The notes beneath the pieces were generated by a model. The model did no database searches, was not told where the DNA came from, and saw only the letters and a program-made list of their open reading frames with translations. Of a stretch of DNA of 64,000 nt, positions 26,400 to 64,000 are shown in pieces. The DNA is taken from positions 18,151 to 82,150 of the forward strand of contig MFQC01000003.1 in assembly GCA_001784285.1 (NCBI GenBank), read 5' to 3'. Position 1 is the first letter of the stretch; each line of letters opens with the position of its first letter. Both the position numbers and the translations under genes were made by a program. The DNA is from Candidatus Magasanikbacteria bacterium RIFCSPHIGHO2_02_FULL_48_18. GTDB lineage: Bacteria > Patescibacteriota > Patescibacteriia > Magasanikbacterales > UBA922.

Positions 26400-26454
26400 G
26401 TATGGATTTACTCGGCGTAATTATGAAGATTGGCCGACACAGTTAAAAAAATTG

Positions 26455-26527
26455 TGACCCCGGTGGGGATTGAACCCACGACCATCAGCTTAAAAGGCTG
26501 CTGCTCTACCAGCTGAGCTACAGGGTC
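26455..26527 (-). tRNA. tRNA-Lys (anticodon UUU)
   Basis: rc reads GACCCTGTAGCTCAGCTGGTAGAGCAGCAGCCTTTTAAGCTGATGGTCGTGGGTTCAATCCCCACCGGGGTCA. 7-bp acceptor stem, canonical D-arm and T-loop, anticodon loop CTTTTAA. No encoded CCA. Confidence 0.85.
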
Positions 26528-34598: not shown

Positions 34599-34670
34599 GC
34601 CGCGTTCGTCTATCGGCTAGGACGCATGGTTCTCATCCATGTAAGAGGGGTTCGACTCCCCTACGCGGTA
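34599..34670 (+). tRNA. tRNA-Glu (anticodon CUC)
   Basis: GCCGCGTTCGTCTATCGGCTAGGACGCATGGTTCTCATCCATGTAAGAGGGGTTCGACTCCCCTACGCGGTA. Acceptor with one G-U pair, Glu-like D-arm GTCTA...AGGAC, anticodon loop TTCTCAT, T-loop TTCGACT. Confidence 0.85.
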
Positions 34671-34692
34671 CGTTGTTGATTATTACAATTAT

Positions 34693-34766
34693 GTCAGGGT
34701 AGCTCAGTTGGTGAGAGCGTAGGATTCATAACCCTAAGGTCGGGAGTTCGATTCTCCCCCCTGACA
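34693..34766 (+). tRNA. tRNA-Met (anticodon CAU; elongator type, could alternatively be tRNA-Ile2 read via lysidine)
   Basis: GTCAGGGTAGCTCAGTTGGTGAGAGCGTAGGATTCATAACCCTAAGGTCGGGAGTTCGATTCTCCCCCCTGACA. Perfect 7-bp acceptor with G1-C72, so not an initiator. Anticodon loop TTCATAA. Confidence 0.8.
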
Positions 34767-34771
34767 CCCAG

Positions 34772-59974: not shown

Positions 59975-60388
59975 TCATACGTGTTTTCCCTGCTTGTATT
60001 TTTCAATAATCGTGAAGACATTTGGAGCGGAATTCGGTGGCAGATTATTGATATCATACCAACCCCATTCAATAATTTCTTTGCCCGGGCGAACCTCGCC
60101 AATGCGGTTGGCGAGATAATGGACAAGAATCACCAGGCGATCTTCTTTTTCTACTTGTCGAGCGAGCAGGGTGTCGAGCGGTTTGATGATCTCGATATCA
60201 ATGCCCATTTCTTCTCTGGCTTCTCGTCTGCACGTCTCTTCAAGAGAAATGGAAAAATCTTCCACTTTTCCTCCGGGAAACATAAAGAGTGTTTCGCCGT
60301 ATGGTTTTTTTTCTCTGTTGAGCAAGACTTTTCCATTTTCCACAATGACCGGTCCGGAAGCGATAATTGTCTCAGGGGGTAAAAACAT
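59975..60388 (-). CDS. NUDIX hydrolase
   Basis: Nudix box GGKVEDFSISLEETCRREAREEMGI (Gx5Ex7REUxEExGU). Confidence 0.85.
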   Translation of the reverse strand: MFLPPETIIASGPVIVENGKVLLNREKKPYGETLFMFPGGKVEDFSISLEETCRREAREEMGIDIEIIKPLDTLLARQVEKEDRLVILVHYLANRIGEVRPGKEIIEWGWYDINNLPPNSAPNVFTIIEKYKQGKHV

Positions 60389-60449: not shown

Positions 60450-61691
60450 ATGACAAATAGAAAAAAGGCTGAAAAACATCCTTTTCAACCGCTGGCATAC
60501 CGCATCCGTCCGACCAGATTTGAAGACGTTTTCGGCCAGGAAAAAATTATAGGCAAGGGCACTCTTTTGCGCAGGCTTATTGATCGCAATGAAATTCGTT
60601 CGATTATTTTTTGGGGTCCGCCGGGCGTGGGAAAAACCACGCTTGCGCACATTATTGCCAATGAACTCGATGCCGAGTGCGTCACCATTTCCGCGGTCAT
60701 GAGCGGCAAAGAAGAGTTGCGCTATATTATTGAAAAGGCGCGGAATTTTTTGGATACGCAAAAACGGAGAACTATTTTATTTATTGATGAAATTCATCGA
60801 TGGAATAAAGCGCAACAGGATGCTCTGCTTCCTCATGTGGAGCAGGGGACGGTTTTATTGATTGGGGCAACGACGGAAAATCCGTCGTTTGAAATTATTG
60901 GCGCGTTTCTCTCTCGTTCTCAGGTATTTATTTTACAATCTCTTACTGAAGAGAATATTGTTTCCATTCTAAGACGAGCTCTTTCTGACACAGAAAAAGG
61001 GTTTGGCGATCATACCATAGATATATCAGATGAGTGTCTTGTTATAGCCGCAGGGTTGTCCGGCGGCGACGCGCGCGCAGCACTGAACGCGCTTGAATGC
61101 GCGGTATTGGCAAAATCAAATCAAAAAAAAAGAGTACAGATTACAAAAGAGGATATACGAGAAGCCTTTCAGCGAATACATGTGGTGTTCGATAAAAATG
61201 GGGAAGAATTTTACAATGCTATTTCAGCACTGCATAAATCAATGCGCGGGTCAGACCCAAACGCCGCGTTATATTGGCTCGCCCGCATGCTTGAGGGCGG
61301 AGCGGATCCGCTGTATGTTGCTCGCCGGGTGCTTCGGTTTGCTTCAGAAGATATCGGCATGGCAAACAGCGAAGCCTTGGTACAGGCGCAGGCAGCCTAT
61401 ATGGCGTGTCACGAAATTGGCATGCCCGAGTGTACCGTGCATTTGGCCCAAGCGGTTGTCTATTGCGCCAAATCAAAAAAATCCAATGTGTTGTATACTG
61501 CGTATGGCAAAGCCGCGAAAGACGCACGCGAAACATCACATCTTGGAGTGCCGCTTCATTTACGAAACGCGCCAACCACATTTATGAAACATATCGGGTA
61601 TGGAAAAGAATACAAGTACAACCCCGATTATGATGGTCCGGTGGAACAAGAATATTTCCCGGAGGAGTTGAAAGGGAGGAAGTACTTTTAA
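60450..61691 (+). CDS. rarA: Replication-associated recombination protein A (AAA+ ATPase MgsA/RarA)
   Basis: Walker A FWGPPGVGKTTLA, Walker B ILFIDEIHR, sensor motifs and MgsA C-terminal helical domain. Confidence 0.9.
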   Translation: MTNRKKAEKHPFQPLAYRIRPTRFEDVFGQEKIIGKGTLLRRLIDRNEIRSIIFWGPPGVGKTTLAHIIANELDAECVTISAVMSGKEELRYIIEKARNFLDTQKRRTILFIDEIHRWNKAQQDALLPHVEQGTVLLIGATTENPSFEIIGAFLSRSQVFILQSLTEENIVSILRRALSDTEKGFGDHTIDISDECLVIAAGLSGGDARAALNALECAVLAKSNQKKRVQITKEDIREAFQRIHVVFDKNGEEFYNAISALHKSMRGSDPNAALYWLARMLEGGADPLYVARRVLRFASEDIGMANSEALVQAQAAYMACHEIGMPECTVHLAQAVVYCAKSKKSNVLYTAYGKAAKDARETSHLGVPLHLRNAPTTFMKHIGYGKEYKYNPDYDGPVEQEYFPEELKGRKYF

Positions 61692-61704: not shown

Positions 61705-62598
61705 ATGCTCTGGGTTTTCTTTGCGCTTCTTGCCCACGTGTGTTGGGGCATGGTGAATGTGACGGACAAATATATTCTTGAAAAACACATACGAAATCCG
61801 TATGTGTATATTGTGTGGCTTTCTCTCTTGGGAATTTTTGGCGCTATTATTCTTTTTCCATTTATTGATTTTTCTTTTCCTTCTTTTCAATATACGCTTT
61901 TGCTTTTCGCCGCGAGCATTTGTTATTTTTTTGGCGGCTTTCCGTATATCAAAGCCATGTCCATGGAAGAAGCAAGCCGTATCAACATTTGGTGGGGGCT
62001 TATTCCTATTTTTTCTCTGTTTTTTTCTTTTATTTTTGTTGGCCAGCGTTTTTCCCAAAATGAATATATTGGGTTTGTCTTTCTTATGCTCGGCGCTGTG
62101 TTTGCGTCAGTGCATCTGAAAAAATCAGCGGTTTCTTTTTCCCGAGCAGTCTGGTATATGGCCCTGGCCGGCGTGTCCTTTGCGCTCTATGCGGTTATAT
62201 TTGATTATGTCACCCGGCGGGTGCCATTTACCATCGCCTATATTTTGGTGACTATATTTTCTTTTTGTTTTGCATTTTCAACATTGTCTTTTCCCAAATT
62301 CCGTCAGCAGTTTTTTGATCACCTTTATGCATTAAAAAGAAAACCGCGGTATGTTATTGTGATCAATAGTTTTTTTGAACAGTTGGGAATATTTTTTAAC
62401 CAATGGGCAATTTTTTTAGGGGTTGCCGCGCTGGTTTTTGCCATGGAAGGATTTCAATTTTTATTTGTTTTTGGTCTCACATCAGGATTTTCTTTATTTT
62501 TTCCGTCAATTATTAAGGAACAAATAAATTTTGGAAATGTCGTTATGAAAATTCTTGCATTGCTCTCTATGGTGTTTGGGATTTTGTTTGTGGTGTAG
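61705..62598 (+). CDS. Polytopic membrane protein, DMT/EamA-like (10 TM)
   Basis: Two roughly 140-aa halves, each with 5 TM helices. N-terminus LLAHVCWGMVNV is EamA-like. Family assignment is tentative. Confidence 0.5.
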   Translation: MLWVFFALLAHVCWGMVNVTDKYILEKHIRNPYVYIVWLSLLGIFGAIILFPFIDFSFPSFQYTLLLFAASICYFFGGFPYIKAMSMEEASRINIWWGLIPIFSLFFSFIFVGQRFSQNEYIGFVFLMLGAVFASVHLKKSAVSFSRAVWYMALAGVSFALYAVIFDYVTRRVPFTIAYILVTIFSFCFAFSTLSFPKFRQQFFDHLYALKRKPRYVIVINSFFEQLGIFFNQWAIFLGVAALVFAMEGFQFLFVFGLTSGFSLFFPSIIKEQINFGNVVMKILALLSMVFGILFVV

Positions 62599-62611: not shown

Positions 62612-62866
62612 TTATTTGCGTATAGCCGCCGGTCCCGGCTTTGATTCACCACAATTGATACAGCGCTGTTCTCCGTCGCTTGTAACATATTCATGCCCTC
62701 CATCTTGTGTGCACGGGGGTTGAAATTCAGACGAATCCCGATTTGGACCGCGGTCAATTTGTGAGGCAGTTTCTCCCCCTGATTTTCCACAATTAACACA
62801 TATACCATGTTCATTGATATATTCATGAACACCAATATCGCAAGGATTTATTTCTTGTTCTGACAT
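62612..62866 (-). CDS. Small duplicated zinc-ribbon protein (84 aa)
   Basis: Start at MSEQEINP (ATG at 62866). Two copies of C-x-x-G-x-HEY-x5/6-C-(V/I)-NCG (CDIGVHEY...CVNCG and CTQDGGHEY...CINCG). Lies 15 nt downstream of the Elp3-like gene on the same strand. Confidence 0.45.
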   Translation of the reverse strand: MSEQEINPCDIGVHEYINEHGICVNCGKSGGETASQIDRGPNRDSSEFQPPCTQDGGHEYVTSDGEQRCINCGESKPGPAAIRK

Positions 62867-62880
62867 AAAAAATGCGTTCG

Positions 62881-64000
62881 TTAAGATAAGGTTTTTTTGA
62901 ATACTAAGGTTTTCTGTATGCATTTTACCATATATGTTCCAGATTTGCGATATCCCAATTTTCGATAATACGTCCGAACGCCAACACCGGAAATAATGGT
63001 GACAGTGGCTATTCCCTGCAATGCGACAATTTTTTCAGCTTTTTTCACGAGTTTTGTACCTAGGCCTCGGTGTTGGGTCGCGTTTTTTTTTCGTTGTCCG
63101 ACACGCATCATTTGTCCATACACATGGAGTTCTCGAATAAATGCGGCACTACGAATTTCGGGGAGTAATTCAAAGAGACGTTTTTTTTGTTTTTTTTCAT
63201 TCATACTGTCGTCAGGAATGCGGAGCCGCAAAAAACCAAAGACCGCGATTCGGTTTGGATCTTCAAAGCTGATAAAATATTCGGTCCCGCCGCGCGTCTT
63301 GTATTGGTCAACAAACAATACGGGTTTGGTATCCGCGGGAATATATTTTTTCTGCCGTCCAATTTCTCTACAGCGCAAACAGACGCAGTGTTCTCCTTTT
63401 TTGCGCAGTGTCTGTTCCAAGGCTTCACGAAGGTTGGTAATCGCATTTCCTGCGGCAATTTCGGTTGCGGGAATATCGCGGATAATGCGTGAAATTCGGC
63501 AGTAACGCGGCGTGGCGCGTTTCATGTCAAGAAGCGCTCGAAAAAGTCCTTCTCCTCCGTACGGCGCATACGAACCATCTTTATACCATTGGTATAATTC
63601 CGCGCTTGGGATAACGGTGCACGGGTATATTTTCACCATGTCCGGGCAAAGTCCGGTATCTTCAAAAAGTGATCGGTACATGGCCACATCGTGTTCCGGG
63701 GTTGTCCCCGGAAGATCGGGCATCATGTGGAGATCAACTTTAAACCCTGCCGAACGCAGGAGATATATTGCTTGTCGGCATTGTTCTACCGTGTGTCCGC
63801 GATTGATAAGAGAAAGAATGGCGTCATCCGCCGCCTGAAGCCCTAATTCTACTCGCGTGCAGCCTTGCTGACGCATGTAAAAAATACTTTTTGGTGATAC
63901 AGCGTCGGGCCGTGTTTCAAGTGTTAGTCCAATGATTTTATATGTAGCTCTTTTATCATTGTATTCTTGCTCTTCTGCCAATTCTTTTTGAAGTGTTTTT
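62881..64000 (-). CDS. Elp3-like radical SAM/GNAT protein (tRNA uridine(34) acetyltransferase homologue); 5' end beyond the window
   Basis: The C-terminal about 150 aa are GNAT-like (QHRGLGTKLVKKAEKIV). The upstream part matches the Elp3 radical-SAM C-terminal region (RPDAVSP...GCTRVELGLQ...IYPC). The N-terminal radical-SAM CxxxCxxC lies off-window. The track Met at 63981 is internal. Confidence 0.7.
   Translation of the reverse strand, partial: KTLQKELAEEQEYNDKRATYKIIGLTLETRPDAVSPKSIFYMRQQGCTRVELGLQAADDAILSLINRGHTVEQCRQAIYLLRSAGFKVDLHMMPDLPGTTPEHDVAMYRSLFEDTGLCPDMVKIYPCTVIPSAELYQWYKDGSYAPYGGEGLFRALLDMKRATPRYCRISRIIRDIPATEIAAGNAITNLREALEQTLRKKGEHCVCLRCREIGRQKKYIPADTKPVLFVDQYKTRGGTEYFISFEDPNRIAVFGFLRLRIPDDSMNEKKQKKRLFELLPEIRSAAFIRELHVYGQMMRVGQRKKNATQHRGLGTKLVKKAEKIVALQGIATVTIISGVGVRTYYRKLGYRKSGTYMVKCIQKTLVFKKTLS

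Follow-up and report, generated by a model that had tools for sequence, protein, structure and literature searches.

Elp3, the radical-SAM/GNAT enzyme of tRNA wobble-uridine modification, was already known to be present in some bacterial clades; its bacterial and archaeal forms share a conserved three-cysteine zinc motif in the linker and are active as stand-alone enzymes in vitro (PMC6367351). In Sulfolobus solfataricus the genes for Elp3 and for a Trm9 orthologue cluster (PMC6144793). Here we analysed an elp3 locus from a bacterium of the candidate phyla radiation (CPR), Candidatus Magasanikbacteria bacterium RIFCSPHIGHO2_02_FULL_48_18, in a 64,000-nucleotide stretch of contig MFQC01000003.1 (hereafter the window). 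At the right-hand edge of the window a partial elp3 gene is followed, on the same strand, by a small open reading frame (ORF) that encodes a cysteine-rich protein of 84 residues, here called the mini-ORF and the mini-protein. An earlier note on this DNA had proposed that Elp3 and the mini-protein may make up a two-component tRNA-modification or acyl-transfer module. Our comparisons do not support such a module, and we put the probability at roughly 70-75 % that the mini-ORF is instead a real gene for a lineage-specific small zinc protein unrelated to the conserved function of Elp3. The features of the window on which the argument turns are as follows.

62612..62866, minus strand: mini-ORF of 84 amino acids, with its ATG at 62866 and its stop codon at 62614-62612
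62648..62713, minus strand: repeat 2 of the mini-protein, C52 TQDGG H58 EY VTSDGEQR C69 IN C72 G73
62786..62842, minus strand: repeat 1 of the mini-protein, C9 DIGV H14 EY INEHGI C23 VN C26 G27
62867..62880, minus strand: spacer of 14 nt between the elp3 stop and the mini-ORF start
62881..64000, minus strand: 3' two-thirds of elp3, comprising the C-terminal 372 codons and a TAA stop (62883-62881), with the frame entering from the window edge
62921..62923, minus strand: alternative upstream in-frame ATG of the mini-ORF, giving a 103-residue version that overlaps the last 43 nt of elp3

The portion of elp3 inside the window codes for some of the radical-SAM domain together with Radical_SAM_C, the CxCxxC zinc motif and the GNAT/KAT domain. 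In these 372 residues Pfam recognised Radical_SAM (E 1e-11) and Radical_SAM_C (E 6e-17) and, with weak scores, GNAT families, the match of Elp3 to Acetyltransf_1 being borderline (20.8 bits against a cut-off of 20.7). The same portion passed the cut-off of the NCBIfam model TIGR01211 (ELP3; 368.9 bits, cut-off 350), which bears out the earlier note in its reading of a partial, Elp3-like radical-SAM/GNAT gene at the window edge. The gene could be completed, as that note had suggested, by extension onto L001, a 186-kb metagenome contig (ENA ERZ28564302) whose sequence matches the window at 100 % identity across the 1501 nt that were compared.

L001:8226-9986: complete elp3, 586 amino acids

The full-length protein scored 504.7 bits with TIGR01211, over model positions 12-521 of 522, and the radical-SAM motif CxxxCxxC lies past the window edge, as C95-PGK-C99-IY-C102. 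The radical-SAM core is therefore not missing; by its domains and motifs the upstream gene encodes a true Elp3 and belongs to a known and already annotated family. The linker zinc motif, C419-V-C-LR-C, aligns with C-R-C-IR-C of Dehalococcoides mccartyi DmcElp3, GNAT motif A (the acetyl-CoA motif Q/RxxGxG/A) is found as QHRGLG at residue 523, and the C-terminal region aligns to the DmcElp3 KAT domain. DmcElp3 (5l7j) was also the best PDB match of the full protein (E 3e-105), followed by Methanocaldococcus infernus and eukaryotic Elp3 structures, and public NCBI and JGI records name the homologues 'tRNA uridine(34) 5-carboxymethylaminomethyl modification radical SAM/GNAT enzyme Elp3' or 'elongator complex protein 3'. 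With DmcElp3 and MinElp3 (6ia8) the protein has in common the Radical_SAM / Radical_SAM_C / GNAT-KAT architecture and the CxxxCxxC, CxCxxC and QxxGxG motifs. It differs from both in having a CPR bacterium as its host, and from DmcElp3 in an insert of ~40 residues (183-222) and in an N-terminal extension of ~77 residues, which DmcElp3 lacks and which is present in MinElp3 and in the TIGR01211 model (PMC6367351).

We then searched systematically for relatives of the mini-protein beside Elp3 in other genomes. A scan for Elp3 loci that took one genome per GTDB species gave 69 loci, 64 of which were readable downstream; about 60 of the 69 belong to Magasanikbacteria or other Patescibacteria, with Elp3 at 46-66 % identity, and the rest to DPANN archaea, at 35-42 %. 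A generic zinc-ribbon regular expression applied to the 1.2 kb past each Elp3 stop identified a relative of the mini-protein in 0 of the 64 readable loci, and neither a regular expression for its CHCC motif, run in six frames, nor permissive tblastn with the mini-protein detected one in the Elp3 loci. When the full Elp3 was searched against 5.8 billion proteins, the nearest Elp3 outside the species was 64-65 % identical; none of the three closest relatives (0/3) carries the mini-protein, and the position after elp3 is taken in them by QueH, by an unrelated 105-residue ORF or by a GGDEF protein. Among the relatives this slot varies in length, from zero, with the two genes overlapping (L063), through a few to ~15 nt (L025, L044) up to ~3.5 kb, and in contents, which may be nothing, QueH, GGDEF or unrelated ORFs. 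The proposed module thus fails, since in other genomes the mini-protein does not accompany the Elp3 homologues, and the co-occurrence across genomes that the earlier note had suggested testing by gene-neighbourhood analysis was not seen beyond this species. On these comparisons, the pairing of Elp3 with the mini-protein is a one-species accident of gene order and not a conserved component of the Elp3 system.

In Candidatus Magasanikbacteria GW2011_GWA2_56_11, where the gene order Elp3–X–EamA–MgsA is the same as here, the slot is occupied by an ORF of 101 residues that combines a transmembrane helix at the N-terminus with one CPYC…CDPC zinc ribbon (L037:5772-6077, plus strand); considered as a conserved partner, this ORF was rejected, its sequence and architecture being unrelated to those of the mini-protein. 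In a close relative whose Elp3 is 64 % identical to ours, the slot holds QueH (epoxyqueuosine reductase), another tRNA wobble-position modification enzyme, which is convergent with the 3' end of Elp3 and overlaps it (L205:4682-5212, minus strand).

The mini-protein itself (MSEQEINPCDIGVHEYINEHGICVNCGK…PPCTQDGGHEYVTSDGEQRCINCGESKPGPAAIRK) carries two Cys-His-Cys-Cys units, C9-x4-H14-E-Y-x6-C23-V-N-C26-G and C52-x5-H58-E-Y-x8-C69-I-N-C72-G. The earlier note had described them as two copies of C-x-x-G-x-HEY-x5-C-(V/I)-NCG; the duplication is real, the x5 has to be corrected to x6 and x8, and the Cys-to-Gly spacing differs between the copies. The same note was right to place an 84-residue protein downstream of elp3 on the same (minus) strand, and its gap of 15 nt is one of 14 nt. 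The repeats are identical at 12 of 25 aligned residues, and these identities fall on the putative ligands and the flanking G/N/G, the loops having diverged, with in-frame indels. Two C-x4-5-H-x8-10-C-x2-C motifs occurred with a frequency of 5e-6 in 200,000 composition-preserving shuffles. A looser regular expression run over six frames of the whole window found no other match, and no paralogue is present in the window.

A single-sequence AlphaFold2 (AF2) model, with a predicted local distance difference test (pLDDT) score of 46, places beta-hairpins at residues 15-25 and 57-71, corresponding to the HEY…C portion of each repeat; the ~24-residue linker between the units has a pLDDT below 50. Such a model would suit two small ribbons. 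Among the Pfam ribbon models, Zn_Ribbon_1 (PF13240) stayed below threshold (14.9 bits against a cut-off of 25, E 0.023) and the others gave E > 0.6. Nothing in NCBIfam matched, the best PHROG, a family without known function, aligned over 18 residues at E 7e-4, and the best PDB match, the zinc ribbon of ribosomal protein bL32, was sub-threshold (E 0.41). The claim that the mini-protein lies outside named families therefore held, with no significant match in Pfam, NCBIfam, PHROGs or the PDB. Based on the ligand spacing and the resemblance to generic ribbons such as bL32, each half is probably a beta-hairpin zinc ribbon or knuckle, predicted to bind one Zn2+ via Cys/His/Cys/Cys. The generic ribbons (Zn_Ribbon_1/Zn_ribbon_3, bL32, TFB/TFIIB, HypF) share with the mini-protein a beta-hairpin, in the latter a predicted one, ahead of a C-x-N-C-G knuckle, and they too place an aromatic residue two positions beyond a His or Cys ligand; in HypF and TFB the same HEY…C[IV]NCG string is found. 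Unlike them, the mini-protein has C-x4/5-H rather than CxxC as its first knuckle, consists of two tandem units with a low-order linker of ~24 residues and has no homologous family. It would be an orphan within a known structural class and not a new system.

Database searches for homologues returned the mini-protein alone from 5.8 billion proteins (word-indexed search) and, from 1.84 billion representatives (exhaustive phmmer), the mini-protein together with one spurious low-complexity match. This single distant hit, P0002, was rejected as a VSDGEER low-complexity repeat. To judge from these searches, the mini-protein is a species-restricted orphan. Its HEY, called conserved in the earlier note, turned out not to be specific to a family. 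Scans of viral and metagenome contigs with the back-translated motif HEY-x(4-10)-C-[IVM]-N-C-G recovered HEY…C[IV]NCG in many unrelated zinc-binding contexts, including HypF fingers and the archaeal TFB ribbon, as well as in a soil family of small CxxC…HEY…CINCG proteins and in small C-x(1-3)-HEY…CINCG ORFs. None of the proteins found in the motif scans is tandem in the manner of the mini-protein, none adjoins Elp3, and Pfam names none of these motifs. Since the string recurs in many unrelated zinc ribbons, HEY is, across the sequences recovered, a recurrent local feature of the strand that precedes the CxxCG knuckle and not a family signature.

The motif scans also gave very large predicted surface proteins in which H-x-[YF]-x-NGIC-x-x-CG modules recur. 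These proteins, of 900 to >1,800 residues, are built from repeated units of ~300 residues (L191:3931-9303, plus strand; also L107, L108, L118, L171 and L189), and each unit holds one C-D-G-x(~20)-H-x-[YF]-x-NGIC-x-x-CG module. One L191 module scanned with Pfam was not recognised.

With regard to gene structure, the open frame of the mini-ORF fills the whole 280-nt gap between elp3 and a convergent EamA-family gene (61705-62598, plus strand), with 13-14 nt to spare on each side; the stop of the EamA gene lies 13 nt from that of the mini-ORF. The GC content of the mini-ORF is native-like (0.44 vs 0.45). No Shine-Dalgarno sequence, promoter or terminator could be recognised in the 14-nt spacer (62867..62880) and, because elp3 and the mini-ORF lie on the same strand, 14 nt apart, with neither terminator nor promoter between them, the two are probably co-transcribed. 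NCBI records use the 103-residue version and name the product 'hypothetical protein'. Records of the exact 84-residue sequence come from 19 metagenome contigs; 8 places were read, and the loci compared among these same-species contigs (8/19) are essentially identical. An explanation of the region at the level of RNA found no support, as there was no Rfam match and no terminator, and the predicted fold is not unusually stable (z-score -0.52).

We favour the reading in which the mini-ORF is a real gene whose small zinc protein is lineage-specific and has nothing to do with the conserved role of Elp3. The 84-residue ORF would then simply occupy the variable slot that separates elp3 from the convergent eamA gene. 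Its product would most plausibly be a small accessory of a generic kind that binds nucleic acid or protein in a zinc-dependent manner, and it may be dispensable. Several observations weigh against this reading. The codon usage of the mini-ORF is atypical for the genome, its score of 0.085 bits per codon lying at the 1.1th percentile of known in-frame gene chunks (0.36 +/- 0.12), as compared with -0.03 +/- 0.12 for off-frame sequence, and the mini-ORF is without a Shine-Dalgarno sequence, as are many genes of this genome. The AF2 model is poor and, with a pLDDT of only 46, the zinc-ribbon fold of the mini-protein is not demonstrated. The same-species contigs compared are so nearly identical that they give no polymorphism signal of purifying selection. 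In addition, the nearest Elp3 is only about 65 % identical, and a fast-evolving partner could thus have escaped detection in the relatives, and the tight, operon-like spacing with elp3 is also what would be expected of a functional partner.

Some of these observations could be accounted for if the mini-ORF were non-functional, either a decaying remnant of zinc-ribbon coding sequence or an over-called ORF in the elp3/eamA spacer, a reading that we consider unlikely but not negligible. Such an origin would suit the codon score, which lies at the 1.1th percentile of in-frame gene chunks and no more than about one standard deviation from off-frame sequence, but the Cys/His/Gly/Asn-rich composition of the protein in itself lowers that score. 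The missing Shine-Dalgarno sequence would fit as well, but many real genes of this genome are also without one. The lack of a homologue among either 5.8 billion or 1.84 billion proteins, the disagreement between annotation pipelines over the start (84 or 103 residues) and the several relatives that have little or no spacer in the slot all point in the same direction. Against this, the open frame spans the entire 280-nt gap to within 13-14 nt of each end, two correctly spaced Cys/His/Cys/Cys units would arise by chance at 5e-6, and the retention of ligands and G/N/G alongside loops that have diverged with in-frame indels is the pattern expected under protein-level selection.

Synteny mapping in the class revealed a conserved backbone that consists of PALP, a methyltransferase head-to-head with Elp3, the variable slot, (EamA), NUDIX and SHMT.

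L001:7534-8223, minus strand: Methyltransf_11 methyltransferase of 229 amino acids, just past the right edge of the window, its start 2 nt from the Elp3 start (L001:8226)

Of the 58 bacterial loci with a match in neighbour-gene tblastn (69 loci had been fetched), 54 have this methyltransferase on the opposite strand, upstream of Elp3. Its best PDB match is Trm9 (5cm2_Z, E 2.3e-15; next match 7e-12), and no NCBIfam model was reached at cut-off, for which reason orthology with Trm9 is unproven; the assignment as Trm9-like draws its main support from the conserved head-to-head arrangement with the elp3 gene. As in the archaeal and eukaryotic Elp3–Trm9(–Trm112) pathway to mcm5U34, Elp3 here stands beside a class-I Methyltransf_11 protein, and this pairing is kept across Magasanikbacteria; unlike in that pathway, no Trm112 homologue was identified in this locus, and the mini-protein gave no match to Trm112p. 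To go by family membership, Elp3 would use its radical-SAM [4Fe-4S] cluster and acetyl-CoA bound by the GNAT/KAT domain to place a carboxymethyl group on C5 of the tRNA wobble uridine U34 (cm5U34), and the Trm9-like class-I methyltransferase would then turn cm5U into mcm5U by methylation, in parallel with the pathway of archaea and eukaryotes. Elp3 and the Trm9-like methyltransferase, rather than Elp3 and the mini-protein, would make a plausible two-enzyme module (cm5U to mcm5U).

Eukaryotic Trm9 requires the zinc-knuckle protein Trm112 (PMC6144793, PMC4678810), and this counts towards the idea that the mini-protein is an independently evolved, lineage-specific accessory subunit of the Elp3/Trm9-like wobble-uridine pathway, be it a Trm112-like zinc-knuckle activator of the methyltransferase or a Kti11/Dph3-like metal electron donor to the radical-SAM cluster of Elp3. 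The position on the same strand, 14 nt past elp3, with no promoter or terminator between, would be in keeping with such a role. Kti11/Dph3 is an ~80-residue metal-binding partner of the Elongator pathway, and the mini-protein (84 residues) resembles both it and Trm112 in size and in metal-ligand content, as well as in its association with Elp3. We nevertheless think a role of this kind very improbable. Kti11/Dph3 and Trm112 have one CCCC site each, whereas the mini-protein has two CHCC sites; it has no sequence match to either of them and, unlike them, is not kept with Elp3 in related genomes. Tried as Trm112 (PF03966) and as Kti11/Dph3 (zf-CSL, PF05207), it gave no match at E <= 10 in Pfam or the PDB, and it showed no similarity to Trm112p, to zf-CSL or to the solved Trm112, Kti11 and rubredoxin chains. 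Moreover, Elp3 from bacteria and archaea works on its own in vitro (PMC6367351), and dozens of other Magasanikbacteria keep the pair of Elp3 and Trm9-like methyltransferase without the mini-protein.

The weakest of the alternatives draws on the location of the mini-ORF beside a radical-SAM gene. Small Cys-rich ORFs in such positions are typical of sactipeptide and ranthipeptide loci, but that the mini-protein is the precursor of a ribosomally synthesised and post-translationally modified peptide (RiPP), and thus the substrate of the adjacent enzyme, can practically be dismissed, since that enzyme is an orthologous Elp3 with GNAT in which only the Radical_SAM, Radical_SAM_C and GNAT families were found and no SPASM/twitch/RRE maturase domain, since Elp3 is kept without the peptide in all relatives, and since no transporter, protease or leader-recognition gene adjoins.

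A second zinc ribbon is encoded nearby on contig L001 (L001:6403-6567, minus strand), a protein of 54 residues with CPxC…CxxCG that ends in EIVDEGK and matches Zn_ribbon_LysW just short of the cut-off (E 4e-6, 26.7 bits against 27). This LysW-like protein near the PALP gene is found at the equivalent position in 35 related loci across Magasanikbacteria, at 54-70 % identity. As a candidate for Trm112 it was rejected, being a conserved LysW-like protein whose match to Trm112p had an E of no better than 0.15. The EamA gene is flanked by a gene for an MgsA/RarA AAA+ ATPase (window 60450-61691, plus strand) and by a 137-residue ORF (window 59975-60388, minus strand) that corresponds to the NUDIX gene on L001. 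The order EamA-MgsA-NUDIX-SHMT is common to few relatives (L037, L057), and in most others MgsA comes after SHMT. Elsewhere the window holds a gene for tRNA-Lys(UUU), a typical Elp3 substrate class, at 26454-26527 (minus strand), and tRNA-Glu(CUC) and tRNA-Met at 34599-34770.

The nearest Elp3 relatives recovered outside Patescibacteria came from the DPANN archaea (Nanoarchaeota, Woesearchaeota and Parvarchaeota; L065-L069, L071, L073, L076 and L077), at 35-42 % identity. This similarity, together with the archaeal-type N-terminal extension, may reflect an archaeal origin of the Magasanikbacteria Elp3, a suggestion to be read with the bias of the pattern-based locus scan towards close relatives. 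About 25 loci (among L009-L064) with a Magasanikbacteria Elp3 (46-66 % identity), nearly all of them with its synteny, are found in metagenome-assembled genome (MAG) records titled 'uncultured Gammaproteobacteria bacterium'; these records are apparently mislabelled bins of Patescibacteria.

A new two-component tRNA-modification module would have mattered had it been true, and little follows from a pairing confined to one species. The mini-ORF, for its part, exemplifies the small Cys-rich orphan ORFs that build up in CPR genomes, in the variable slots between operons. An archaeal-type Elp3 with an N-terminal extension is confirmed here for Candidatus Magasanikbacteria as a class, and the tight pairing of this Elp3 with a Trm9-like methyltransferase suggests a eukaryote- or archaea-style (m)cm5U34 pathway in a CPR lineage.

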